Part shown: positions 44,133 to 59,287 of the stretch, in pieces
How the letters are laid out: every line of letters begins with the position of its first letter
How positions within the stretch are numbered: position 1 is the first letter of the stretch
Assembly (NCBI GenBank): GCA_964346655.1
Contig: CAYFVP010000055.1
Span: forward strand, 5,028-69,027
Length of the DNA stretch: 64,000 nt
Reading direction: 5' to 3'
Source: an uncultured Thermoplasmatales archaeon
GTDB taxonomy: Archaea > Thermoplasmatota > E2 > DHVEG-1
The notes under the pieces: generated by a model
Seen by the model: the letters and a program-made list of their open reading frames with translations, nothing else
The model's database searches: none
What the model was told of the DNA's origin: nothing
Translations under genes and position numbers: made by a program

Positions 44133-47100
44133 ATGAAGAAAAAAATAATTGGGATTTTTATTATATTGTTAATGATCTGCAGTGTTCTTGCAAGTGCTTC
44201 TGTAAATATTAACATAGAAGCAAATATGTTAGGTGAAAAAGAAAATATTATAAAAGAAACTATCTCTGTTGGAGCTTATCAAATAGAAAGCACTGAGCAA
44301 GGCGTAAAAATTTGTGTTAATAATTTTGGTCGTTTATTGATACCTGGTAAACCTAATTTACCATCAAAGATATTTTCATTTGCTATTCCACCTGGTTCTG
44401 AGTTTGTTGATATCAACTATAAAATATTGGAACGCGAAATTCTTCCAGGTAATTATTATGTTCAACCTACTACTTTACCACGGGTAATAGGTCAGGAAAA
44501 ACCTGAAGTTTATATGCAAGAACAAAAAGTATATGAGGACAATTACAACAAGGTCTATTATAGCAAAGAACCGTATCCTTCTTCTGCTGTTGAATTTGTA
44601 AGGACTGCAGGTTATAGAAATTTTAATCTTGTTGATGTTAGAGTTAATCCTTTTTCATATAATCCACTATCTGGAATATTAGAATTTTTTTCAAATATTG
44701 ATATACAAATAACATATAAATTTCCTGATGGTTATCCAGATAATAATTTAATGATTGACGATAACATAAATGTCAATAAAATTGCAGAAAAAATCATTTT
44801 TAATTATGATCAAGCGAAAAACTGGTATAAAACCAGTTTAAGTGGAAGAGAATCTTATGATTTGGTAATAATTACAACCAGTACATTAACTTCAAAAGTT
44901 ACAGATTTAGTAGATTGGGAAGAAGAAAAGGGAAAAAGTGTAAAAGTTGTTACTACTTCTTGGATTAGTTCCAACTATGATGGGTATGACTTAGCAGAAA
45001 AGATGAGAAACTTTCTTAGAGATAAATATCCTTCAAATAAATGGGGTATTGAAGATGTTTTAATTGTAGGTGATTATGATGATGTTCCAATGCGACGTAC
45101 TGCCCAGGATACAGGTTATGGAAGACCTGAGACTGACTATTATTATGCAGAGCTTTCCCTTCCTGATAGTCAATCTTGGGATGCAGATGGTGATCATCAA
45201 TATGGTGAGGATTCAGATCCTATTGATTTTTATACCGAGGTAAATGTTGGAAGGATTCCCTGGAGTAGTACTTCAACTGTTGAAGATATTTGCGAAAAAT
45301 CTGTTGATTATGAACAGAATAATGATGTATCTTTTAAGAAAAATATTCTCCTTTTAGGTGCCTATTTTTGGCCAGATACTGACAATGCAGTATTGATGGA
45401 GGAAAAGGTTGATCAAGAATGGATGGTTGATTGGACTATGACTCGAATTTATGAACAAGGTCATTCCTCTTATCCATCTGATTACGACCTTACTTATTCA
45501 AATGTTGAATCAGTATGGTCATCAGGTAAATATGCTTTTGTGAACTGGGCAGGTCATGGCTCTCCTACTGGCTGTTATATTTACTATTCATCAGGACCTT
45601 TTGTTGATACACAAACATGTAATTCTTTAAATGATAACTATCCTGCTATTATCTTTGCTGATGCTTGCAGTAATTCAGATACAGACCATCTCAACCTTGG
45701 TCAGTCTATGTTAAGGAATGGTGCTGTTGGATTTGTAGGCGCAACAAAGGTTGCTTATGGTATGCCTGGCTGGAATAACCCATATGATGGCTCAAGTCAA
45801 TCAATGGATTATTTCTTCACGACATGTGTAACATCTGGTGAATATTCACAGGGTCAGGCTCATCAATGGGCATTACTTGAGATGTATACAAATGGACTTT
45901 GGTATTATAATAAATATGAAACATTTGAATGGGGAGCTTTATGGGGGCATCCTAATCTAGCTATGGAACCACCTCTCTTAAAAATTAAGCTACAAGATGA
46001 ATTACCTAAGTTGATAGAACCAGGAGTCTCAACATCCATTTCTGTTGAAATTGAAGAAAATACAGATAACTATATTCCTGGATCAGGTAAGCTTTATTAC
46101 AGATATGACAGTGCAACATTTATTGAATCACCTTTAGAGCATGTTAATGGTGAGCTATATGAGGCTACATTACCACCAGCATATTGTGGCGATATACCTG
46201 AGTATTATTTTAGCGCAGAAGGAGAAAAGGCTGGAACAATATTCAAACCATATGGTGCTCCAGACAATTTATATTCTGCACTTGTAGGAGAATTTATCAC
46301 AGTGTTTTCTGATGATTTTGAAATAGATAAAGGTTGGACTGTTGAAAATGATCCATATTTAACGATTGGTGCTTGGGAACGAGGAGTGCCAATTGGCGGT
46401 GGTGACCGAGGCGATCCGCCAGCAGACTATGATGGCTCAGGACAATGTTATCTAACATGTAATCAAGATGGAGACTCTGATATTGATGATGGAATTACTT
46501 GGCTTATATCTCCAACTTTTGATCTTAGTTATGGTTTAGATCATATTATTGAATATGCCTTATGGTATACCAATAACTATGGGAATGATCCAAATAATGA
46601 TTTATTTAACGTGTATGTTTCAAATGATGATGGCTCAAACTGGGTTTTAGCAGAAACCATTGGACCTGCATCTTCTTCAGGTTGGAAAGAACATAGTTTT
46701 GTAGTTAGCGATTATGTTACACCCAATAATGAGGTAAAGGTTCGCTTTGAAGCATCAGACTTAAATGCAGGATCAGTTGTTGAAGCAGGAATTGATGCAT
46801 TCCATATTTATATCCACGAATGTAATAATCCTCCAATGCCTCAGCTAAGTTGTAGTGGAAATCTTAATTGGAATAGGGTGCAACCAGAAGAAACGGTTAC
46901 AGGTTCTTTTACAGTTGAAAACTCAGGTGATCCTGATTCACTTTTGAGTTGGAATATTGAAATTCCCACAAGTTGGGGCTCATGGATTTTCAATCCTGAG
47001 TTTGGTATCGACTTAAAGCCTCAAGATGGACCAGTTACGATAAATGTTGAAGTTGTGGCTCCATCTGATCCACAAACAGAATTCAGAGAAAAAATTAAAA

Positions 47101-47258
47101 TATACAATCCGGAAGATGTTGGAGATTACTGTGAAATAGACGTTGTTTTAAATACTCCAAGAAACAGAGCCATTAATATGCCACTTTCTATTTTTAAAAA
47201 TAGAAATTTACAGATATTTACGTTTCTTCAGATGTTATTACATCTTTTAATTAAATAA
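44133..47258 (+). CDS. secreted clan-CD cysteine peptidase (C25 gingipain-like) with C-terminal beta-sandwich domains
   Basis: signal peptide; His-Gly ([10 protein letters not shown]) and Ala-Cys ([10 protein letters not shown]) catalytic blocks each preceded by a hydrophobic strand; GGGGAG SD at 44120. Confidence 0.6.
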
Positions 47259-47398
47259 AGACTTTAAGCTTTTTTTATTTTAATATTTCAAAATCCATAA
47301 TAAAATAATCTTTTATTATATATTACAAATTTTATTAAAATTAGACATACTAATTTATATACCTAAAATCTATTTATTATGTATTAAATACGGCGGAG

Positions 47399-48169
47399 GT
47401 GGAAAATTTGAAAAAAACAAGTTTTAGGAAAAAAGGCTTAGTAGTATCTATAATTATTTTATTTATTGGAGTTGGTATTTACCCTGCTATTGCGATATTC
47501 CCTGACAAATCTTCTGATATTTTCTTGGATAAAAATATCAAGCAAGGAAAAAATACAGAACCAAAAGAATATTTATTTCAAACTATTATTGATATAGCAA
47601 ACAATCCTGAAGTAAAGGATTTATTTGAACAAACAAAAAATAATGGTGAATGTATCAGTTGGGATTGTGATTTTAAAAGTGTTTTTCAAAAATTATTATT
47701 TAGAAAACCCATACTTATCATTTCTTTGATATTTTCTATACCTAGTATAACACATTCTTATCTTAATAATAATTTTAACAGAGGTTGTGAAATAACAAAA
47801 ATACTTGGAGAAGAAAAAGTAAGTAATATAGTTGAATCAACTGAGATTACTAATCCTGAATTTTTCATTGAATTAAATGACATCATTACAAATGATGAAG
47901 AATTGTCTAATAGGATTTCAATTCTATCGGAGATGAATGAAGAGTTAAAACCTGATGCACCTTTCCAGAATGATTCATCTATCTGTGTACTTTTATTTAT
48001 ACTTTGGTTTGTATATATTATTAGAACTGGGATATCAAAAATAATAGGTAATTTCTTCGAAGGCTCAATTTTATCAAAATTATTTGATTTGCTATGGTAT
48101 AAAAATTGGCGTATAGCAGGTATCATTGCATTAGTATTTGATTTAATGGATTGTGATCATATTATCTAA
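47399..48169 (+). CDS. secreted/membrane hypothetical protein with the IIILFIGVG leader
   Basis: N-terminal KKGLVVSIIILFIGVGIYPAIA; C-terminal TM segment. Confidence 0.4.
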   Translation: MENLKKTSFRKKGLVVSIIILFIGVGIYPAIAIFPDKSSDIFLDKNIKQGKNTEPKEYLFQTIIDIANNPEVKDLFEQTKNNGECISWDCDFKSVFQKLLFRKPILIISLIFSIPSITHSYLNNNFNRGCEITKILGEEKVSNIVESTEITNPEFFIELNDIITNDEELSNRISILSEMNEELKPDAPFQNDSSICVLLFILWFVYIIRTGISKIIGNFFEGSILSKLFDLLWYKNWRIAGIIALVFDLMDCDHII

Positions 48170-48394
48170 ATAATTATTACATAAAAATTATCAAGAGCTC
48201 AATTAAAAAAATCTATTTTTTTTTAAATTTTATATATTTAATTTTTTTTAAAACAAATTTTTTTAACAACATTTTTGTTTGGTTTTTTCCGAACATAGTA
48301 GTATAATATATAAACTATAAAAATGCTTCTTATTCGAATCTTGATACATAGGACGACATGAAATCACATAGAAATTCCATTGGTAGTAGAAATC

Positions 48395-48535
48395 ATGAAA
48401 AAGAAATATAAAATTATAATTGGTATTGTAATATTATTGGTTGGCATTATTGCATTATTTTTTGATAATGCAGTTACTGCTACATTATGCGTTCCAATTG
48501 GAGTTTCTCTTATTATATTTTCAAAAATAATATAA
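48395..48535 (+). CDS. unannotated 46-aa membrane mini-protein
   Basis: MKKKYKIIIGIVILLVGIIALFF...; a single TM. Confidence 0.25.
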   Translation: MKKKYKIIIGIVILLVGIIALFFDNAVTATLCVPIGVSLIIFSKII

Positions 48536-48721
48536 TTTTTGTTGAAAAAATTAAAAAAATATTTTAAAAAAGTTTATTTTCTAGTTATTTTTAATAAATA
48601 GTAATTATATTTATTTGAAGATAAAATTTAATTTTTAATAATAAGATTTATATATGATATATAGAGGTAAAAGTTATATACACTAATTGTCATATGATAA
48701 AATATAAGAGGGGGATAGAAA

Positions 48722-49567
48722 ATGAAAAAAGAATTATCCAAAAGGGCGCTGGTTATTGGAATTATAGTAATATTTATTGGTGTTTCTGTTTCACCAGTAA
48801 TTCAAGGATCAAATCTTAAAACAGATTCATATAAAATAAGGGTAAATAATGAAAATCAAGATACTTCTTTTATAACATTTCATACTTTTGATAAATCTGG
48901 TTCAAAAAAGTGTGGTGTTGAGCTATCTTATAATGCTGTTGAAGAAATCTCTTCCATGTTCGAAGATTTAGAACATAAAATTATTAATGAACCTTTTAGT
49001 TCGGAAACTAAAGCTTTAAAATCTGATTTTGTTGATCTATTAGAGTCGTATGACTTGTTTCCTGCTGGGATGTCCAAAAATAAGGTGCTTTCTTTGTTGA
49101 ATCCGTCCTGGCTTAGTTGGTTTGAAAAAAGACCATATTTTAAAACAAGTAAAGCCTTAAAAACAGGTTTTTTCAACATCTTTAATGTATTGGGAAATCT
49201 TCAAAGGTTTTTTGTTTCTTCTGATATCATTGAGTCGTTGGTAAGATATCCTGAGCCATCTTCTGCTGCCGCTGATGCATTTTTATGTAATATAATTAGT
49301 TGGGGTGTTGGGGTACCTATCCCTTTGTTTATGCTTCCTAGACCTCGTGGTATAGCTTTATGGTATGCTCCAAAAGAATCCCTAACTAATGTAGGTCAGC
49401 TAGTGATTGCAAGTGGATTTCAAGCAAAAGGCACTCAATACGGTATTGCTTTAGGTTTTGTTGGTCTTGGCCTTAGTTTTGCTGTTTTAGGTGAATTTCT
49501 ATATGGTATCATAGGTTATTCAGTTTATGTATATATTAATGCAGATGAAATTACATCGATTTCTTAA
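48722..49567 (+). CDS. secreted/membrane hypothetical protein with the IIVIFIGVSVSP leader
   Basis: N-terminal KRALVIGIIVIFIGVSVSPVIQG; AGGGGGA SD. Confidence 0.45.
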   Translation: MKKELSKRALVIGIIVIFIGVSVSPVIQGSNLKTDSYKIRVNNENQDTSFITFHTFDKSGSKKCGVELSYNAVEEISSMFEDLEHKIINEPFSSETKALKSDFVDLLESYDLFPAGMSKNKVLSLLNPSWLSWFEKRPYFKTSKALKTGFFNIFNVLGNLQRFFVSSDIIESLVRYPEPSSAAADAFLCNIISWGVGVPIPLFMLPRPRGIALWYAPKESLTNVGQLVIASGFQAKGTQYGIALGFVGLGLSFAVLGEFLYGIIGYSVYVYINADEITSIS

Positions 49568-49833
49568 TCCAATTAAAAATCCCTAAATTCTAGTTAATCT
49601 ATTTATAACATTGTAAATATTTCAACTTATCTAAATTCTTTTTTAGAATTCTTTTTTTTATAGTAAAATGTAAAGATTTTATCTTTATAAAAAAGCTTTG
49701 ATTTTTTACTTAATTAAGGGAATCAAAATTATTAGTAAGAAAACAGAACAATTTTAACAGATTCAAAATTATGCTATTAATAATGGTATATATTTAAATA
49801 CTTAAACAAATATAGATAATTATTGGGGGTAAT

Positions 49834-51402
49834 ATGCAAGGAAAAATAGGTTTTAGGAGAAGATTTTTTGTAATATTTGCAGTTTTAATATTAGCATGTG
49901 CTACTATTATTCCGAATGTGGTTGGTCAATCTTATGTTGATTCAAAAAAAGCTGAAGAAAAAGAAATTAAAAATTTGGCTAGTTTTAGATCACTTTTTAG
50001 AAACTTATTAATTAAAACACTTTCTAATAGATTTCAACCAGTAGGAATATTAAAAAGTACTCTTAACACAAATTGTGATGGTATTGAACTATCAACAGAG
50101 ATAATATTTGGTAGAACAAAAGAAATAGATATTGATAATAATTTAGATACTGGTGTTAATGGTAAAGACATTAAAGTTAATTATTTTATTTTACCTTATA
50201 TTAAATTTGACTTTGGTATTGGATTAGGATTAACATTTACGTTTTATATTGAGCGTATTGGTGCAGAAATAAAAGATAGCGATTTCAGTGCAAGTTTAGA
50301 AATTGCTCAGAAGACTATTGTTTTAGGATTCAAATCCCCTGCTGAAATTGGAAATGAAATCCCTTTTTCCACTCGAGTATCATTTAATTTATATTTTTAT
50401 TTGCTTAAGAGAACTCGTGGATTTGGTTTGGCATTGACTCCTGAATATTCTAGTGGAAATGATAATAAAAAGATTGAACTTTTTGCAGAATATTCTGGTG
50501 AAGAACCAAAACGGGAATTCTCGTTATTATTTGACCCTGCTATACAAACTGAAATAGGTTTTGAATCAACAAAGATAAAGGGCGTTTGGAACTATAATTT
50601 CTATCGTAAATCCTCAGATGATTGTCAACTTACATCTAATTTTAAATCAATAGAAAACGGTGCGTCAAAAGATACAACAATTACAATAGATAAATTGCCG
50701 AAAGAATTAAAATTTTCGCTAGGATTAACACCTCTTTCTCAAGGAGGTGGCCAGTTTTTATATGAAAGTAGTGATAAATACGATATTGAATTACAAATTA
50801 TAAGCAGTGAACTAGGAATCTGTGGTTATTCATATCTAAAAAATACTCCAAAAAGAATTTTTGCAGAATGGATTCCTACTTTCCTTAATGGAGAATACCA
50901 TATAGATATAGATTCAAATGGGACAGATTTTGGTATTAAGGATACATTAGTTAATCCATATATTAATCTTGAAGTAAAAAGCCTTAAAACAATTGAGGTA
51001 GATGCATATTGGAATCTTACAAATCCAGGGGATTTTACAGTTTACAAAGATACAGATATTCATGTTGACTTAGATTTTTCAATTGGAGAATGGGTTGCAA
51101 ACCTTGATGTTGAACCAATTGCAAAAAACATTTCAACATCCTGGTTTATAGATATATCCGGTTATTTGACAATTGATACAAATGGAGAGCCATTTAGTAT
51201 TATGGATTTAACTGTTAAAGGACCTTTAATAGGTCTTCGTATTATTGGAGAATCGTTTAAATCTGAGGATGCAAAAATTTCTTGGACTTTATGGCCACCT
51301 CAGGAATGGGATTTAACAATAACAGGCTGGGTTATTGCATCTGAAATAAGTTCCATTGATATATACTTAATAGATAGTTGGTATCATCTCTGGCCGTGGT
51401 AA
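49834..51402 (+). CDS. secreted hypothetical protein (522 aa)
   Basis: signal peptide RRRFFVIFAVLILACATIIPNVVGQ; GGGGG SD. Confidence 0.45.
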   Translation: MQGKIGFRRRFFVIFAVLILACATIIPNVVGQSYVDSKKAEEKEIKNLASFRSLFRNLLIKTLSNRFQPVGILKSTLNTNCDGIELSTEIIFGRTKEIDIDNNLDTGVNGKDIKVNYFILPYIKFDFGIGLGLTFTFYIERIGAEIKDSDFSASLEIAQKTIVLGFKSPAEIGNEIPFSTRVSFNLYFYLLKRTRGFGLALTPEYSSGNDNKKIELFAEYSGEEPKREFSLLFDPAIQTEIGFESTKIKGVWNYNFYRKSSDDCQLTSNFKSIENGASKDTTITIDKLPKELKFSLGLTPLSQGGGQFLYESSDKYDIELQIISSELGICGYSYLKNTPKRIFAEWIPTFLNGEYHIDIDSNGTDFGIKDTLVNPYINLEVKSLKTIEVDAYWNLTNPGDFTVYKDTDIHVDLDFSIGEWVANLDVEPIAKNISTSWFIDISGYLTIDTNGEPFSIMDLTVKGPLIGLRIIGESFKSEDAKISWTLWPPQEWDLTITGWVIASEISSIDIYLIDSWYHLWPW

Positions 51403-51634
51403 TCTCTTTTTTATTTTGAACCAATATACCCTAAATTCATAGGATTAAAAATCAAACACATCAACAGAAGGCATAATTTAAATGAGATAGACTTTTTACT
51501 CAACGTTCTAACCTCCTCAATAATTTTTACAGATCTAAAATATTTGAAACTTCAAGATGATTATCTCTGGGTTAATCTTTAATCTTGTAAATAAAAAGTG
51601 AAAAATCTATTTTGTAATAATAATTTTAGATTTA

Positions 51635-52147
51635 TTAAAAAGGTTCATCCCAACAATTAAACTCATAGCCAATTACCCAAGTTAATAACCAAATCTCAGC
51701 AAAAGGAACAGCAAGTAAAGTAAGTATAAAAGCCTTTAAAGGTTCTTCTCCCAATAAATTATTGTATACATCTTTCAAATAATACAAAGTGTCTTTAAAT
51801 GAAAAATAAATATTTTTTAAAATATCACAAATTGGTCTATCGTTATTTAAATCTTTTAATGCAGAAATTCTAATAGATAATTTTTCCCATTTCTCTAATA
51901 AATCAGGATTGTTTATATAGAAAAACTTTAATATCTTTGTATAAACCTCTAATCTATTAAACATCCTATCCAATTTAACAAGATAACTGTTGCTTATTTC
52001 TTGACAATCAAAATCCTCTTCACTTTTATTATTAACTATAAATAATTCAGTTTCAATAGATATAGCAGAAGAATAACTAACTCCAATAAATAATATAATG
52101 ATACCCAGAGTAAGGGTTTTACTTAATAGATTTTGTTTTATATACAT
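51635..52147 (-). CDS. secreted/membrane hypothetical protein with the IIILFIGVSYSS leader
   Basis: N-terminal SKTLTLGIIILFIGVSYSSAISIE. Confidence 0.4.
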   Translation of the reverse strand: MYIKQNLLSKTLTLGIIILFIGVSYSSAISIETELFIVNNKSEEDFDCQEISNSYLVKLDRMFNRLEVYTKILKFFYINNPDLLEKWEKLSIRISALKDLNNDRPICDILKNIYFSFKDTLYYLKDVYNNLLGEEPLKAFILTLLAVPFAEIWLLTWVIGYEFNCWDEPF

Positions 52148-52792: not shown

Positions 52793-53140
52793 ATGGACGG
52801 GATGCAGGAAGATAATCAATTAGAGTCTTCTATCAATATCAGAAGACCCTTGGTTATTAGAGCTTTAAGGCGAAGCAATGTAAGAAAGAAAATAGCAGAA
52901 TATTTATTTGAAATTAGTCCTAGTAGTAGCTATACCTCTGAAATTGCTTATAATGTTAAAACCACCCCAACAAATGTAATTGGTGCAATTAGAGGAATGG
53001 GATCAAGGTATAAGGTTGATGAATCACTTTTAAATTTAAAAATTATTGAAGAAAAAAGCACTGGAAAAAATATTAAATTATATTGTTTAACTCCTTTTGG
53101 AAGAGAAATAATTTCATCTTTATTAAAAAAAGATATATAA
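52793..53140 (+). CDS. small winged-helix (MarR/ArsR-like) transcriptional regulator
   Basis: helix-turn-helix-like stretch VRKKIAEYLFEISPSSSYTSEIAYNV followed by a wing. Confidence 0.35.
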   Translation: MDGMQEDNQLESSINIRRPLVIRALRRSNVRKKIAEYLFEISPSSSYTSEIAYNVKTTPTNVIGAIRGMGSRYKVDESLLNLKIIEEKSTGKNIKLYCLTPFGREIISSLLKKDI

Positions 53141-53821: not shown

Positions 53822-54643
53822 CTATAGTTCAGACAGTTTATTCCTTGCAATTTTTACATAAGATTCATCTATTTCAAAGCCAATAAAATCCAACCTTAAT
53901 CTTTTACATGCAATAGCAGTTGAACCAATCCCCATGAATGGATCTAATACAAGTTTTACTTTTTCAACACCATGCAATTTTAAACATGTCTCAGGTAATC
54001 TTATAGGAAAAACAGAGGGATGCGGGCGGGATACTTGAATTGTTTCATAAGGAATAAACCACGTATTTCCACGAGGACGTAAATCATCAATTGCTTTTTT
54101 CCATCGACCAATGTTACTTTTATCTTGGTAACAAACGCCTATCGCCATTTTATTTAATTTTACATCTCCACTTAATGTAAAATGAAAAACATACTCATGA
54201 CAGCCACTCAAATATCTTTCACTATTTACTGGTTGGTAATGACCAACAGAAATATCATTATTTATATTTGTATAATTTCCAACATCTTGTTTTGAAATAG
54301 AAATTGATTTTATCCAATGAATTACATTTTGTAAAATAAAATATTTTCTAAAACGCTGAGCAATATCAAATGGAATCCAAAGGTCAGTTGGTTTCCCGCC
54401 AACATTTAAAAAAAATGAAGAATTGTCATTCATTACATCTTTACATTCTTTTGCCAAATGTTCCAACCAATTAAGATACTCTTCTCTTGGTTTTTCATCA
54501 TAATAATTACTATATTTTTTACCAATATTATAGGGTGGTGAAGTAACAATTACATCTGAAAATAAAGACTGCTCTTTCATAAGGCCAATTCCTTTTATGC
54601 AGTCCATTAAATATATATTATTTAACTCAAGTTGAAGATACAT
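53822..54643 (-). CDS. beta-class DNA amino-methyltransferase (N6-adenine or N4-cytosine), orphan
   Basis: motif [13 protein letters not shown] followed later by motif [11 protein letters not shown] (beta order). Confidence 0.75.
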
Positions 54644-54659
54644 ATTATCTAAAATTTTT

Positions 54660-56117
54660 TTATTTTTTGTTTTTTTCAATATTGATATCTTCAGTAATAT
54701 TGGCAAGACGTTTTGCAAGTTTTATATAATGATTAATATCTGTTTTTGCATTTATTACTAACTTTGCACTATCTGGAGAACCACCTCCATGCATGCATCC
54801 CGGAACTCCTGCACCCAAGGTAAGCCACTCTACTAACCTTGCTATTTTTGCTCGGGTTTCCCCTGAACAGTTTGCCTGTAAATATTTCTTTAATAACTTT
54901 CCATATTTTGGATCATTAATATCTTTACATGAAGGTAAACAACCAGTTTCAGCAATTCCTCCTGCAATATCCTGAGTAATTCTTTTTGTTTCATAGGGAA
55001 GTTTTGCCACATGAACCTTATTAATGTTTGAAAGAAGTTGATCTGGAATCCAGACACCAGAGGGATGTTTTTTCCCAAGAACGCCTGCTGCAATTCCCAT
55101 ACCAAAGGTTGTTTCATTGTTAATTATCATTTGAGTAATTTTTTCTCTAAACACTTTTTCAGAAAGACCATTTGCTCGAGCCATAAGAACGGCTGCACCA
55201 ACCATTACATCTCCTTGACCTGCTACGCAACCGCCAATTGCAGCTCTATATGGAGCAATAAAATTCATTATAGCTTTTGTTGAATAATCAAATTCACCAC
55301 ACATAAAAACTCTTTCATTTGGAATAAATACATCTTCAAACAATAGATATGCTTGAGTTATACCACCAATATCAACAGGGATATCAAAACCATTTTCTAG
55401 TTCTCTATTATCACTTGGTCTTCTGGTTTCCACGATTGTTAGGTTTTTAATATCTCGAGGAATAACAAAAGAAATTGCATAATCTTTATCAACTTCTTTA
55501 TATCCAGATCCCGGCATTATAAAAATCTCATTTGCTGCAGCAACCCCACAGATCATGACCTTTGCACCGCGGACAATAATTCCATTATCTTTTTTTTCAA
55601 TAACATGTAAACACAAATCAGGATCTTTTTGATTGGACGGAGATTTAGTTCGATTTCCCTTTGGATCAGTAAGTGCACCCGAAATAGTAATATCGCGATC
55701 TTGGGCAGATTTCAGCCAATTATGAATTCTTTTATGATACACAGTTCCAAGATCTTTATCCATATCAAAGGTTGTTGCCCACATTGAATTAAATGCATTA
55801 AACCCTGCACATCTACCTCCAGTACAAGTACCAGTAAGATTAAACATCAATCTTTTCATATGCAGATTTGCAATCATATCTTGAGCACTAGTAATAATAG
55901 AAAGATATCTTGATACCTGTTTACCACTTATACTTGATTTAGTAGTTAGAATATCTTTATACTCATCTTTAAAAGATGCATCAAAAATCTGGGCATGTCC
56001 TGCAACTGTTCTCTTAGTTGCAGGGTGAATTGTTACATCTTTTATAAGTTCACCAAATTTGTAAATATTTGGTTTCATTTTTCGAAGGCTTTCTTTGTAA
56101 TCCTTACCTGTTTTCAT
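54660..56117 (-). CDS. abfD: 4-hydroxybutyryl-CoA dehydratase / vinylacetyl-CoA delta-isomerase
   Basis: near-colinear blocks with Clostridium aminobutyricum AbfD ([67 protein letters not shown]). Confidence 0.85.
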
Positions 56118-56321
56118 ATTTATTTTTTCCCTTTCACTTTAAATTCCCATTTTGGAAAAGTTAACTTGATTTAATTTTTTTGATTTACTAGTGTTTTCTC
56201 ATTATTATTTTATATTTTTTTAAGATGTCAATCAAGTCCTATTATTTAACTTTTTAATTTATGATAATTTTTTTTCTTGTTTTTTTATCAAATTATATAG
56301 GGTTGTAAGCCTAAAAAATTG

Positions 56322-57254
56322 ATGAGTCAATCTTTTGAAAATTTATTCTATAAGCAGCAATTAATCCCTGATTCATTGGTGGATGGTGGGGATGGTGTTC
56401 AATGTGTGGGCGGAGCCACCATTGAACAGGATTCCTTCTCAGATTCTTATGATAAAAGTTCATTATGTTCTCCTTTAGGAACTTTTGTAAATTTAGAATA
56501 TATTTTTGAAACGTATCCTGTTGTTAAAAGAATTTTTGATAAGATCTCTAGGTGTGGTATTATTTATCCAGAGTTTCTAAATATTAAAACCTTGGATACA
56601 ATTAATATTAAGGCTTTTTGTGATAATCGTGTGTGTAAAAATCCTGAATGTCAGAAACATCGTCTTTTAAAGTTTATGAAGGAGCATATGTATCAGATAT
56701 TTGATATTCAGAAAGATATGAGGAAGCCTAAGGCTTGGATTTTTACTGTTCCTCATAAAAAATATCCTATTGATAGGAAATATTGTATGAATAAACTAAA
56801 ATTTCTTTTTTATCTCTTATCGAAGGATAAACATTCAAGTTTTGGATCTAGTTCTTTATTTTCAGTTCATATGGAGATTAAGTCTAGTGTTAATAGTTGG
56901 TTTTTACATTTTCATATTGTTAGTGGTGGTATTACTAATCTTAGGTTTATTAAAAAAAAGTGGAAATATATGATTAGATATCAAGTGGCAATTAGTCCTA
57001 AGCAGCTTTCTCGTTATGTTTCAAAATATGCTTCTAAAACACCTTTTTTTCCAAATAAATTGGCTTTCTTTGAGTATGCTCAAGCTGTTTATAAACTTCA
57101 GATGCATCGTTTTTCAACGAAGATAAAAAAATCTAAAATTGTATCTGATTGGGTTCTTATTGGTATTAGTGGATATAGTAAATCCAATGATTTATTTAGT
57201 GATATGAGTCAGTATTTGGATAGATATGTTGATGATTTTGGTTATGGGAGTTAA
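56322..57254 (+). CDS. HUH-endonuclease rolling-circle Rep (superfamily I, phiX174 gpA-like two-Tyr motif) with a Cys/His zinc finger
   Basis: motif I AWIFTVP, motif II LHFHIVS, motif III YVSKYASK (compare phiX174 YVAKYVNK), CDNRVCKNPECQKH. Confidence 0.55.
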   Translation: MSQSFENLFYKQQLIPDSLVDGGDGVQCVGGATIEQDSFSDSYDKSSLCSPLGTFVNLEYIFETYPVVKRIFDKISRCGIIYPEFLNIKTLDTINIKAFCDNRVCKNPECQKHRLLKFMKEHMYQIFDIQKDMRKPKAWIFTVPHKKYPIDRKYCMNKLKFLFYLLSKDKHSSFGSSSLFSVHMEIKSSVNSWFLHFHIVSGGITNLRFIKKKWKYMIRYQVAISPKQLSRYVSKYASKTPFFPNKLAFFEYAQAVYKLQMHRFSTKIKKSKIVSDWVLIGISGYSKSNDLFSDMSQYLDRYVDDFGYGS

Positions 57255-57343: not shown

Positions 57344-59287
57344 TTAAAAGAGTTTCAGTACCCTTATGTTTTTTATTATAGTTTTATCATATATTCCATT
57401 GCATATCAGCTTAATATTATGAAATCCAAATTTTACTTCATCCCATGAATAGGTGTATAATGAAAATCTATCTGCTCGTTTAAATTTCTCATCAATGTAA
57501 AACTCTACTTCGGCTAGATTTTCAGATCCATTGACCTCAATATTTATTTTACCTATTATTATCGGGAAGATAAACGGAATTAATTTTTTATTATTCAAAT
57601 ATATTCCAGGTTTTGGTTTTTCGACACTGATGTTCAATAAAACAGGTTGCATTACAAAATCAATTTGTAAGGTTTCACCATCTTGAATTGGATATTTTTC
57701 AGTTCCTGAAGGATAGTGTCCATCTGCAGTAGCATGAAGTCTTACTTCTCCAGCGGCAACATTCATCTCATAATATCCTGAATTATCTGTTTCTGTGTGA
57801 TTTCCTCCGCAATAATCTCCATTTTCATCATATGAAGAAGCTGAAACATAGGCACCTTTAATTTCTGGATGAGTAGTAGTATCGCTTTTAATATAACCTT
57901 TTACAACTGAATTTTTAGGAGGATATGGGTCTAATGAGATATTCAGCAATATGGTTTCATCTTCTCCTATCATGTAGGTATCAGATCTAAAACTATAATA
58001 TTCTCCACTTGAAGCAGAAACATAAATTGAGATATTCCCAGGTGCAATATTCATTTCGTAAAATCCTAGATTATCTGCCAAAGTATTTTTACTAAAGTGA
58101 TGACCTTGTCCATCAAACCAAATACACCTTATATGAGCCTCTTCTATTGGATCATTTGTATTATTGTCAGTAATATATCCCGTTATTTTTGCTGTTTGGG
58201 GAGGAATTTCATATAGTGTTTGGTCCCAATAATATGTTTCACCTTCATTTATATGATCGTGAAGGCCATAAGAGGAAGTATGGTGATATGTAAATGCATC
58301 AATCCAAAAATCAGATTCTGCAACCATTATTTCATAGTATCCATCTGCATCTGTAAAAGTGAAATTCCAATCAAAATGAGGAATTTCATAATTATCTGAC
58401 ATTACTTCTATTAAGACATTTTCTATTGGTTCACCTGATTGTTCTTCTGTTACATATCCACATATCATCGCGGAATCTGGATATCTAGGATAAAGGTGGA
58501 TGATAAACTCTGTCGTCTCTCCATCTCCAACTAGTTTTTCTCTTTTATATGTTTCATAATAATCCTCTGCATAAACCCATGGCATTGCCTCTCCTGCAGC
58601 AACGTTTACACTGAAAAAACCATTATCATCAGTAACTGTATATAACCATTCTCCATGATCATTGTTATCACTCCAGGTTATATCAACAACAGCGCCTTCA
58701 ATAGGATCTGCGTTATCAGCATGATATACATATCCATTAACAACAGAATTCTTTGCAGGAGCTCCAGGTGTTAATGTTTTATTTATCCAATTAATCTCCT
58801 CGTCATGTAAATGAAGAATATCACGAAAGCCATAGTAACCTTCAGCACTAACAAAATAAATTACCTCACCATAAAAGATTTTTTCTAAATTTATTTCATA
58901 ATATCCTGTTGAATCAGTAGTTGTTTCATCTCTATCAAAACTTAAATGTTTACCAATTGAAATTATTAAAATAGTTGCATCTTCAATAGGTAAACCGTTA
59001 TTTTCATCTGTGATAAAACCTTTTAGTGTATAATCAAAATAACCTTGATAAAAAATAGGTTCATTGGAATTTTCATAAAAAAGTGTGTCTTTTATTTTTA
59101 AATCATAAAATTTACATACTTCTTCTATAGGTCGTAAGTTTTTTTGCTCTTCAATATTAAGATATTTTGTTTCAGTTATGATGTGATTAATAGATATTGG
59201 ATTATTCTTTACCAGCCCCATTATTGTTGGAGATAAACTAGTCCCAATAAACAATAATATAATCATATAAGCAATTTTTTTCTTCAT
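57344..59287 (-). CDS. secreted surface protein with about six CarboxypepD_reg-like repeats and the IILLFIGTSLSP leader
   Basis: recurring G(Y/F)YE(M/I)N(V/I)AAGE blocks roughly every 95 aa; N-terminal signal peptide. Confidence 0.55.
   Translation of the reverse strand: MKKKIAYMIILLFIGTSLSPTIMGLVKNNPISINHIITETKYLNIEEQKNLRPIEEVCKFYDLKIKDTLFYENSNEPIFYQGYFDYTLKGFITDENNGLPIEDATILIISIGKHLSFDRDETTTDSTGYYEINLEKIFYGEVIYFVSAEGYYGFRDILHLHDEEINWINKTLTPGAPAKNSVVNGYVYHADNADPIEGAVVDITWSDNNDHGEWLYTVTDDNGFFSVNVAAGEAMPWVYAEDYYETYKREKLVGDGETTEFIIHLYPRYPDSAMICGYVTEEQSGEPIENVLIEVMSDNYEIPHFDWNFTFTDADGYYEIMVAESDFWIDAFTYHHTSSYGLHDHINEGETYYWDQTLYEIPPQTAKITGYITDNNTNDPIEEAHIRCIWFDGQGHHFSKNTLADNLGFYEMNIAPGNISIYVSASSGEYYSFRSDTYMIGEDETILLNISLDPYPPKNSVVKGYIKSDTTTHPEIKGAYVSASSYDENGDYCGGNHTETDNSGYYEMNVAAGEVRLHATADGHYPSGTEKYPIQDGETLQIDFVMQPVLLNISVEKPKPGIYLNNKKLIPFIFPIIIGKINIEVNGSENLAEVEFYIDEKFKRADRFSLYTYSWDEVKFGFHNIKLICNGIYDKTIIKNIRVLKLF

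Follow-up and report, generated by a model that had tools for sequence, protein, structure and literature searches.

A stereotyped N-terminal leader, probably a cleavable Sec signal peptide, on diverse exported proteins of uncultured Thermoplasmatota

Four genes in one contig open with a common leader

Within a 64,000-nucleotide stretch of contig CAYFVP010000055.1 from an uncultured Thermoplasmatales archaeon (assembly GCA_964346655.1; hereafter the window), four genes encode proteins that open with nearly the same segment, ...[KR]K-x-L-V-x-G-I-I-I-L-F-I-G-V-S-x-x-P-x-I..., which we refer to as the leader. The window is also contained in NCBI contig JABAOF010009932.1 (78 kb, assembly GCA_012974965.1). 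Leader 1, (M/L)KKTSFRKKGLVVSIIILFIGVGIYPAIA (47408..47494, plus strand), begins a 253-amino-acid (aa) protein; leader 2, MKKELSKRALVIGIIVIFIGVSVSPVIQG (48722..48808, plus strand), a 281-aa protein; leader 3, MYIKQNLLSKTLTLGIIILFIGVSYSSAIS (52058..52147, minus strand), a 170-aa protein; and leader 4, MKKKIAYMIILLFIGTSLSPTIMG (59216..59287, minus strand), a 647-aa protein. The probable start of the first gene is TTG 47408, with a GGAGG-like stretch upstream, and its NCBI gene model is likewise 253 aa long; the longest open reading frame (ORF) runs from GTG 47399 and has 256 aa. A six-frame search of the window with the pattern [hydrophobic]x3-F-[ILVM]-G picks out these four ORFs and no others, each match lying 15–33 residues past the upstream stop. 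An earlier reading of this DNA (the original prediction) had quoted the four strings, all of which are present, and had proposed a profile search as a check. We ranked the 905 six-frame ORFs of the window with a hidden Markov model (HMM) trained purely on leaders from other genomes, with zero window sequences. The four ORFs rank first to fourth (E = 2.9e-13, 4.3e-8, 5.9e-7 and 1.4e-4 for leaders 1 to 4), with the fifth-ranked ORF at E = 0.76. Leader 4 is the most divergent, with a short n-region, and scores 34.9 bits with an HMM that includes the window leaders. The shared segment is thus far beyond chance. Of the positions given in the original prediction, 51635 and 57344 are the 3′ ends of minus-strand genes, and its span of 44133–52147 takes in the first three leader genes and leaves the fourth (57344–59287) outside.

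The 253-aa protein (47408..48169, plus strand) consists of the leader, a disordered linker, a helical ectodomain in which the motif EPKEYLFQTIIDIANNPEVK is conserved and, at the C terminus, a membrane hairpin of two helices. It has no Pfam, NCBIfam or PHROG match above threshold and belongs to a sizeable uncharacterised family of 85 clusters, whose mature motif EPKDYLFQTIIDIANNPEVK is conserved downstream of a length-variable acidic linker. Homologues occur in three Thermoplasmata metagenome-assembled genomes (MAGs; loci L015, L023 and L060). An AlphaFold2 (AF2) model for the family (predicted local distance difference test, pLDDT, 74.5; predicted template modelling score, pTM, 0.32) shows the linker as disordered, the C-terminal helical hairpin as very confident and the leader as a single continuous helix over residues 5–28, and has no PDB fold match at E <= 0.001. 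The 281-aa protein (48722..49567, plus strand) represents a small uncharacterised family with the motifs TFYTFDK, LSLLNPSW and PLFxLPRPRG and a Gly-rich hydrophobic C terminus; its AF2 model is of low confidence and unusable (pLDDT 55). The 170-aa protein (51635..52147, minus strand) lacks the EPKDYLFQ module and has a hydrophobic C terminus. The 647-aa exported protein (57344..59287, minus strand) carries five CarboxypepD_reg (transthyretin-like) repeats (PF13620, 2e-38, 5 stretches) followed by a C-terminal Ig-like domain; it is adhesin-like or surface-layer-like and has a weak match to an S-layer glycoprotein model. C-terminal hydrophobic anchors are predicted on several leader proteins, including three in the window. 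The four proteins had been described as otherwise unrelated, which holds in part: BLAST places them in four separate clusters and the leader is the only part shared by the 253-aa and 281-aa families, but the 170-aa protein is a distant paralogue of the 253-aa family (hhalign probability 97%, 165 columns).

The leader has the features of a Sec signal peptide but is fixed in sequence

Alignment of 210 distinct leaders on an invariant Phe gives the consensus M-x5-6, then [LWM]-[FLVI]-[KR]-K(95%)-G(78%)-L-V-[VIL]-G-I-I(97%)-[LVI]-L(96%)-F(99%)-I-G(94%)-[VA]-[SAG]-V-x-P(80%)-[SA]-I-[NSA]-[GSA]. Span statistics, taken over 284 leaders, show an n-region with a median length of 8 residues ending in K/R-K, a distance of 16 residues from the last basic residue to the Pro (interquartile range 16–16), a median uncharged span of 23 residues and, in 99% of leaders, a pair of small residues at −3/−1 placed 6–17 residues past the Phe. 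The leader has the features of a Sec signal peptide of the kind cut by signal peptidase I: a position at the extreme N terminus, a tripartite n-, h- and c-region and small −3/−1 residues. In the 253-aa family the predicted cleavage sites are canonical (FIGVGIYPAIA/V, GLAIQPSVA/V and GIQPAFA/V, the slash marking the predicted cut). A Tat (twin-arginine) signal was rejected, as [KR]-K (K at 95%) and not RR closes the n-region and S/T-R-R-x-F-L-K is absent; a lipobox signal was also rejected, as the position table has no conserved Cys.

Conservation amounts to about 35–58 bits over some 30 residues, which bears out the original claim that the leader is conserved beyond generic signal peptides. 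It covers the whole pre-sequence, including the n-region, and ends sharply where cleavage is predicted. The N termini of the four window proteins match no Pfam or NCBIfam model at E <= 0.1, including those for YSIRK-G/S, KxYKxGKxW and ESPR, and literature searches gave no earlier account of a conserved signal peptide from Thermoplasmatota or any other archaea.

The leader is widespread in uncultured Thermoplasmatota

A search with the leader profile of a word-indexed database of 5.8 billion proteins, used for seeds only, returned six short ORFs among 63 candidates, nearly identical to the leader (for example MRNTLFKKGLVVGIIILFIGVGIQPAISNEI). By back-translation of K-G-x-[VI]-x-x-[VI]-I-x-[LI]-F-I-G we then derived a degenerate DNA pattern, which was searched against one genome from each of 185,579 species. 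The pattern matches 60 loci, 49 of them in archaeal MAGs or probable mis-bins of such MAGs, and nearly all of the archaeal loci are from uncultured organisms labelled Thermoplasmata, Thermoplasmatales or Thermoplasmatota. At least 22 Thermoplasmata or Thermoplasmatota MAGs are matched, up to six times each (six matches in Hel238.bin54, five in CSMAG_1140 and four in chromosome CP070724.1), and these species genomes include no match in a cultured genus. The remaining 11 loci lie in bacterial MAGs; six bacterial matches recovered by the amino-acid pattern are ordinary N-terminal or internal transmembrane segments that are otherwise unlike the leader. Viral contigs gave 0 matches to the DNA pattern and thus no sign of virus-borne leader genes. 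As the strict pattern catches merely 14–32% of recognisable leaders, genomes with 4–6 matches probably have leader proteins numbering in the tens.

Scanned in full with HMMER, a set of 1.84 billion cluster representatives yielded 1,971 proteins that match the leader at E <= 1e-3. Among the 150 top matches the leader starts within the first 30 residues in 147, and the other three start at residues 68, 137 and 28. In the archaeal loci the leader is always N-terminal, a few residues past the start codon and about 10–60 residues past the upstream stop. The leader occurs on no fewer than 1,971 protein clusters and in 22 or more species-level Thermoplasmatota MAGs and, as described below, grades into ordinary signal peptides within orthologous families; it is not the family- or island-specific signal that had been proposed.

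Two loci carry labels from other lineages. Locus L041, from an 'Aenigmatarchaeota' MAG, encodes the same 140-aa leader protein as locus L048 from a Thermoplasmatales MAG, with the same N-terminal sequence and HMM score, and locus L042, from a 'Sedimentisphaerales' bin, has two leader-type ORFs with a typical beta-helix start. Both contigs look like mis-binned Thermoplasmatota, so that the leader can serve as a clade marker. Leader-only mini-ORFs of 35–43 aa that end in a real stop codon also occur (L003 6001–6120, also in L004–L006; L065 ~1295–1400; and L007 6001–6132). The L003 mini-ORF, MKDYWLKKGLVVSVILLFIGVAVAPSINFNVVKASQDFI followed by its stop, duplicates in truncated form the 5′ end of a 290-aa gene 1.7 kb downstream, and the same truncation occurs in L065, which belongs to a separate MAG. 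Of the top 150 database matches, about 17 are at most 61 aa long, some of which may be contig-end fragments. These mini-ORFs could be gene remnants or real small peptides.

Leaders precede many protein families and interchange with other signal peptides

The window and the archaeal loci together contain 67 leader ORFs scoring at least 25 bits. After removal of the first 40 residues, the 66 that can be compared fall into 23 BLAST clusters. The leader is a transferable N-terminal module on unrelated exported proteins, and to this extent the original prediction is supported. Pfam assigns 22 of 62 leader ORFs to NosD/beta-helix, six to PKD and three to LamG domains, and further passengers include papain (C1), caspase (C14), subtilase (S8), M28 and FG-GAP proteins, a typical archaeal exoproteome. 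At locus L055 the leader (residues 1–30) precedes a subtilase prodomain (63–195) and catalytic domain (211–474), an order that puts the leader at the 'pre' position of a pre-pro-subtilase.

Within orthologous families the leader is exchanged for other signal peptides. In the 281-aa family, the alignment position that the leader occupies in some members is taken up in others by an ordinary signal peptide (for example MQRKNILIAILCVTILFLVPLTNVCGA); leader scores in the 253-aa family run continuously from 54 bits down to below 10, and two members have generic signal peptides (for example MKKEILITLLCASLMLITPFTTIAQ). Orthologues with generic signal peptides in these two families include P0161, P0163, P0236 and P0243. 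Homologous beta-helix 'LYVGGSGPGNY' proteins occur behind either the leader (type A) or a second stereotyped signal peptide (type B), with the consensus MKKKI[IV]GIFVCMLLIGT..P..G and 42–57 bits between members. Type B members are found in the window (44133–44204) and in loci L020, L022, L036, L037, L043, L048, L051, L055, L058 and L063. Types A and B coexist in the same genomes, which thus have at least two stereotyped signal-peptide classes. That one passenger family can stand behind either type argues against passenger-specific sorting, and interchange with generic and type B signal peptides indicates that the leader acts as a general export signal. Many N termini without the leader fall into recurrent types, namely type B, a divergent 'LNKNILTIGIIFLF..SALTP..LG' form and a 'MNKKILIGSIIAV..VVGY' family. 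A small-protein family, MNKKIL[IF]GSIIAV.ILVLVSFTGVVGYQ..KS....SPLF..R, is present in L050, L054, L063, L067, L009 and L025 (for example a 195-aa protein on the minus strand of L063); these proteins probably make up another exported family conserved in these archaea.

To estimate how much of the secretome uses the leader, we applied a crude home-made hydrophobicity heuristic to the window and to archaeal loci chosen for containing a leader. It finds 61 leader-positive ORFs and 65 leader-negative ORFs with a single N-terminal hydrophobic segment. Once the seed ORFs are left out, about 20 extra leader ORFs remain in the ~8-kb neighbourhoods, making up about one-quarter of non-seed signal-peptide-like ORFs, or about one-third when weak variants (12–25 bits) are counted. 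The 64-kb window itself has six signal-peptide-like ORFs by this heuristic, all within 44–59 kb; four carry the leader, and a C25 peptidase and a 522-aa ORF do not. The original prediction had allowed that the motif might turn out to be ordinary compositional bias present in most secreted proteins. The leader is indeed common, at one-quarter to one-third of such ORFs, but composition fails to explain it: Gly and Pro are fixed at their positions, the loci span 27–54% G+C content (GC) and synonymous sites are scrambled.

The neighbouring C25 peptidase is probably not linked to the leader

Beside the leader genes lies a gingipain-like C25 peptidase gene (44133..47258, plus strand), with a probable start at ATG 44133 and a longest ORF from 44106. 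The protein has a type B signal peptide (44133–44204), a propeptide (aa 71–235; PF08126, 1.4e-7), a catalytic domain (aa 254–595; PF01364, 8.9e-39) and a choice-of-anchor-J-like domain (aa 739–881) followed by a hydrophobic tail. Its GHGS and ADAC blocks align with the catalytic His and Cys of gingipain R/RgpB (PDB 1cvr), so that its description as a gingipain-like clan-CD peptidase is well founded. The signal peptide is the best non-training match of the type B HMM (22.9 bits, starting at M10) and is a diverged copy.

Secreted C25 peptidases have already been reported in sediment Thermoplasmatota, the Thermoprofundales/MBG-D (PMC6461988), and the window enzyme resembles these extracellular peptidases in its propeptide, its catalytic domain with a His/Cys dyad and its signal peptide. 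It lacks the type IX secretion system (T9SS) C-terminal domain that bacterial gingipains and PorU possess.

The original prediction had also tied the peptidase to processing of the leader, a connection that is not supported. In tblastn searches with the C25 catalytic region against all fetched loci, the window and one metagenomic locus (L003–L005) are the only places where a C25 gene was found close to leader genes, and none was found in the ~46 other Thermoplasmatota leader loci (~8 kb each); moreover, the window C25 peptidase is itself preceded by another leader type. Gingipains cut after Arg or Lys, and PorU removes C-terminal domains. The leader c-region contains neither Arg nor Lys, and we expect that the window C25 catalytic domain would not cleave peptides spanning ...FIGVSVSPVIQGSN.... 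A PorU-type sortase system was rejected as well: co-occurrence is not consistent, the PorU model scores 35 bits on the window C25 against a cutoff of 420, and the shared signal is N-terminal rather than C-terminal. The window 'island' is a cluster of exported-protein genes beside a secreted C25 protease, not a dedicated sorting system.

Cleavable export signal versus other readings

The shared segment is probably a cleavable signal peptide of the Sec type (class I, signal peptidase I) whose sequence has become stereotyped in a clade of uncultured, mostly sediment Thermoplasmatota. On the strength of its residue pattern, the leader would be targeted by Sec and the signal recognition particle (SRP) and cleaved by signal peptidase I. 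It would direct unrelated proteins, among them proteases, beta-helix/PKD adhesin-like proteins and small membrane-anchored proteins, across the cytoplasmic membrane and would be removed at a small-x-small site (of A-x-A or S-I-S-G type) just past the conserved Pro. The four window genes would be ordinary users of this lineage-wide export signal, and the window C25 peptidase would be exported by the second type of stereotyped signal peptide. Class I signal peptides of the archaeal Sec11 type share with the leader an N-terminal position, a basic n-region, an h-region of about 15 residues, a helix-breaking Pro and small −3/−1 residues; they likewise precede exported hydrolases and adhesin-like proteins, and generic ones replace the leader in orthologues. 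Several points weigh against a cleavable signal peptide. Cleavage is deduced from residue statistics only, the 23-residue uncharged span is long enough to remain as a membrane anchor, and the largest sub-family (APSINF/APSINA...VKAS) has a less canonical best −3/−1 site. Sec function needs no 35–58-bit conservation, so that 'just a signal peptide' leaves the conservation unexplained, and the secretome share comes from leader-selected loci and a home-made heuristic.

The length of the 23-residue uncharged span would also suit an uncleaved N-terminal signal-anchor that tethers proteins to the surface, which would be useful if the cells are wall-less, with its sequence conserved for packing against a partner or for tetraether lipids. 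An h-region conserved far past the needs of export and the continuous helix in the AF2 model point the same way. We nonetheless regard an anchor as unlikely: the core runs for just 16 residues to the conserved Pro and is then followed in 99% of leaders by a small-x-small site, purposeless in an anchor; several leader proteins, three of them in the window, already have C-terminal hydrophobic anchors; and orthologues swap the leader for classic cleavable signal peptides. The commonest form of the leader, [KR]-K-G followed by L-V-V-G-I-I-I, recalls a prepilin peptidase site and the conserved helix behind it, as in a class III (type IV prepilin-like) signal, where a PibD/FlaK/EppA-type peptidase would cut after K-G and the helix would then build a pilus- or bindosome-like structure. 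Archaeal class III signals do place conserved N-terminal helices on diverse exported proteins, such as the sugar-binding proteins of Sulfolobus, and like the leader they combine a basic residue and Gly with a conserved hydrophobic helix on diverse extracellular proteins. The leader differs from them in its variable Gly, its short, Pro-terminated hydrophobic stretch and its conserved downstream A-x-A. The Gly at the putative −1 position reaches only 78% in a set biased towards Gly, and clear members of the family can have W, H, K, R, C, T or E instead. Of the four window leaders, one has K-G at this site and one R-A; the other two have K-T or K-K, which do not fit. Hydrophobic stretches of archaeal pilins exceed 20 residues, whereas that of the leader ends after 16 residues at the conserved Pro and gives way to polar small residues, and the A-x-A sites downstream would be superfluous. 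We therefore hold a class III signal to be highly improbable.

A different possibility is that the leader is a specialised sorting or processing signal read by a dedicated factor, such as a paralogous signal peptidase, SRP, a translocon part or the neighbouring C25 peptidase, in the manner of YSIRK-G/S or Tat. Such a reading would account for conservation that spans the whole pre-sequence, including the n-region [LWM][FLVI][KR]KG, and stops at the predicted cleavage site; for at least two discrete stereotyped classes (A and B) in the same genomes; for the clustering of leader genes, with ~20 extra leader ORFs in the ~8-kb seed neighbourhoods; and for a second independent locus (L003–L005) in which leader genes lie beside a C25 peptidase. 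It is made rather unlikely by the lack of C25 in ~46 other leader loci and the export of the window C25 by another leader; by passenger families that carry leader A, leader B or a generic signal peptide, with scores that grade into the generic ones; and by the cleavage preferences of C25 enzymes of known specificity, gingipains cleaving after Arg/Lys and PorU trimming off C-terminal domains. Apart from leader genes, no conserved neighbour was noticed in the loci, where no systematic screen was made. There is, finally, next to no chance that the leader reflects coincidence or the compositional bias of hydrophobic N termini in an AT-rich genome. Codons for K, I, L and F are AT-rich and the window has ~31% GC, but the independent HMM separates exactly four ORFs (E 3e-13 to 1e-4) from the next (0.76), the Gly and Pro positions are fixed, the leader persists in loci of up to 54% GC, and it is missing from other signal peptides of the window and loci. 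On the grounds of fixed Gly/Pro, independent E values and GC range, chance and composition were refuted.

Conservation of the leader is selected at the protein level

Leaders within one genome share ~60% DNA identity, and ~50% of identical residues share a codon. The scrambling of synonymous codons, together with retention of the leader in loci from 27% to 54% GC, indicates that selection for the conserved sequence acts on the protein. Recent duplication, gene conversion or cassette shuffling, as at the 5′ ends of Mycoplasma vlp/vsp genes, was rejected on the same evidence of ~60% DNA identity and scrambled synonymous sites. Within 44–60 kb of the window the strongest inverted repeats are the leader-coding segments themselves: leader 3 DNA and leader 1 DNA form inverted repeat I1 (81% over 42 nt), and the signal-peptide DNA of the C25 gene resembles the leader DNA of the 647-aa protein (inverted repeat I2). 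A search for mobile-element borders found no convincing direct or inverted repeats flanking this region.

As to the selecting cause, our guess is co-adaptation to the SRP/SecYE/signal-peptidase machinery or the membrane of the clade. A more speculative idea, to which we give a small chance, is that type A and type B leaders are address labels of distinct export branches, each read by a lineage-specific factor, for instance a signal peptidase paralogue, a component of the SRP or translocon, or a surface assembly factor that binds signal peptides; if true, this would be an archaeal counterpart of YSIRK-type or Tat-type specialisation. Once cleaved off, the leader peptide might itself be functional.

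Textbooks present signal peptides as the classic example of function in the absence of a conserved sequence. Ordinary class I signal peptides keep only their physicochemical properties, whereas the leader is fixed over ~30 residues, at 35–58 bits, on thousands of unrelated passengers; a pre-sequence this nearly constant on ~2,000 unrelated protein clusters of one archaeal clade is an exception to that rule. Close parallels are the bacterial YSIRK-G/S (PF04650), KxYKxGKxW (TIGR03715) and ESPR (PF13018) motifs, which likewise belong to Sec signal peptides on unrelated surface proteins of one lineage. These have no sequence similarity to the leader, and they are bacterial and lie in the n-region or an N-terminal extension, whereas the leader is archaeal and its conservation mostly concerns the h- and c-regions. 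In practice, a small leader HMM offers a cheap, highly specific secretome marker for abundant sediment archaea, covering extracellular proteases and adhesin-like proteins, and also marks contigs of the clade, two probable mis-binned contigs having been flagged in this way. It further poses the tractable question of what in the export machinery or membrane selects one h-region and one c-region. For the window itself the outcome is mundane, an exported-protein gene cluster and a secreted C25 protease.

Other genes of the window

Between leader genes 2 and 3, a 522-aa exported protein (49834..51402, plus strand) has a generic signal peptide, MQGKIGFRRRFFVIFAVLILACATIIPNVVG, instead of the leader, and no known domain. 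An HpaB/4-hydroxybutyryl-CoA-dehydratase-like gene (54660–56117) and a DNA methyltransferase gene lie between leader genes 3 and 4. The region had been described as an accessory one without metabolic genes; the HpaB-like gene inside it contradicts the second part of this description, and the confinement of all six signal-peptide-like ORFs to 44–59 kb agrees with the first. Elsewhere the window encodes aldehyde:ferredoxin oxidoreductase, 2-hydroxyglutaryl-CoA dehydratase, acyl-CoA synthetases, acetyl/propionyl-CoA carboxylase and a thiolase with a DUF35-type protein. These genes, with the HpaB/4-hydroxybutyryl-CoA-dehydratase-like one, fit an anaerobic, amino-acid-fermenting sediment archaeon such as the Thermoprofundales/MBG-D. 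The four leaders, the homologues of the 253-aa family in L015, L023 and L060 and this gene content together suggest that the window belongs to the leader-bearing clade, and the host is most probably a peptide-fermenting member of it.

A 311-aa ORF (56319–57254, plus strand) contains three rolling-circle (HUH) initiator motifs in order, WIFTVP, HFHIV and YVSKYASK, and a Cys-rich CDNRVCKNPECQKH segment. This Rep-like ORF has no match in Pfam, NCBIfam, PHROGs, PLSDB plasmids or GenBank phages; no flanking repeats were found around it and the window has no tRNA gene. Nearby are the DNA methyltransferase (53822–54718; phrog_67, 8e-45) and an EarA-like winged helix-turn-helix protein (52793–53140), and the ORF may be a remnant of an integrated plasmid or virus of unknown type.

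GC falls from ~38–44% in the first 10,000 positions of the window, which hold HdrA-like and FAD/FeS oxidoreductase genes, to ~30–35% across 10000–64000, and is lowest, at 22–29%, at 47–54 kb, where intergenic spacers are long. One of these, an AT-rich spacer of 553 bp that separates leader genes 1 and 2, contains a 46-aa ORF, MKKKYKIIIGIVILLVGIIALFFDNAVTATLCVPIGVSLIIFSKII (48396–48536, plus strand), which has two predicted hydrophobic helices and is an annotated gene in the NCBI record.

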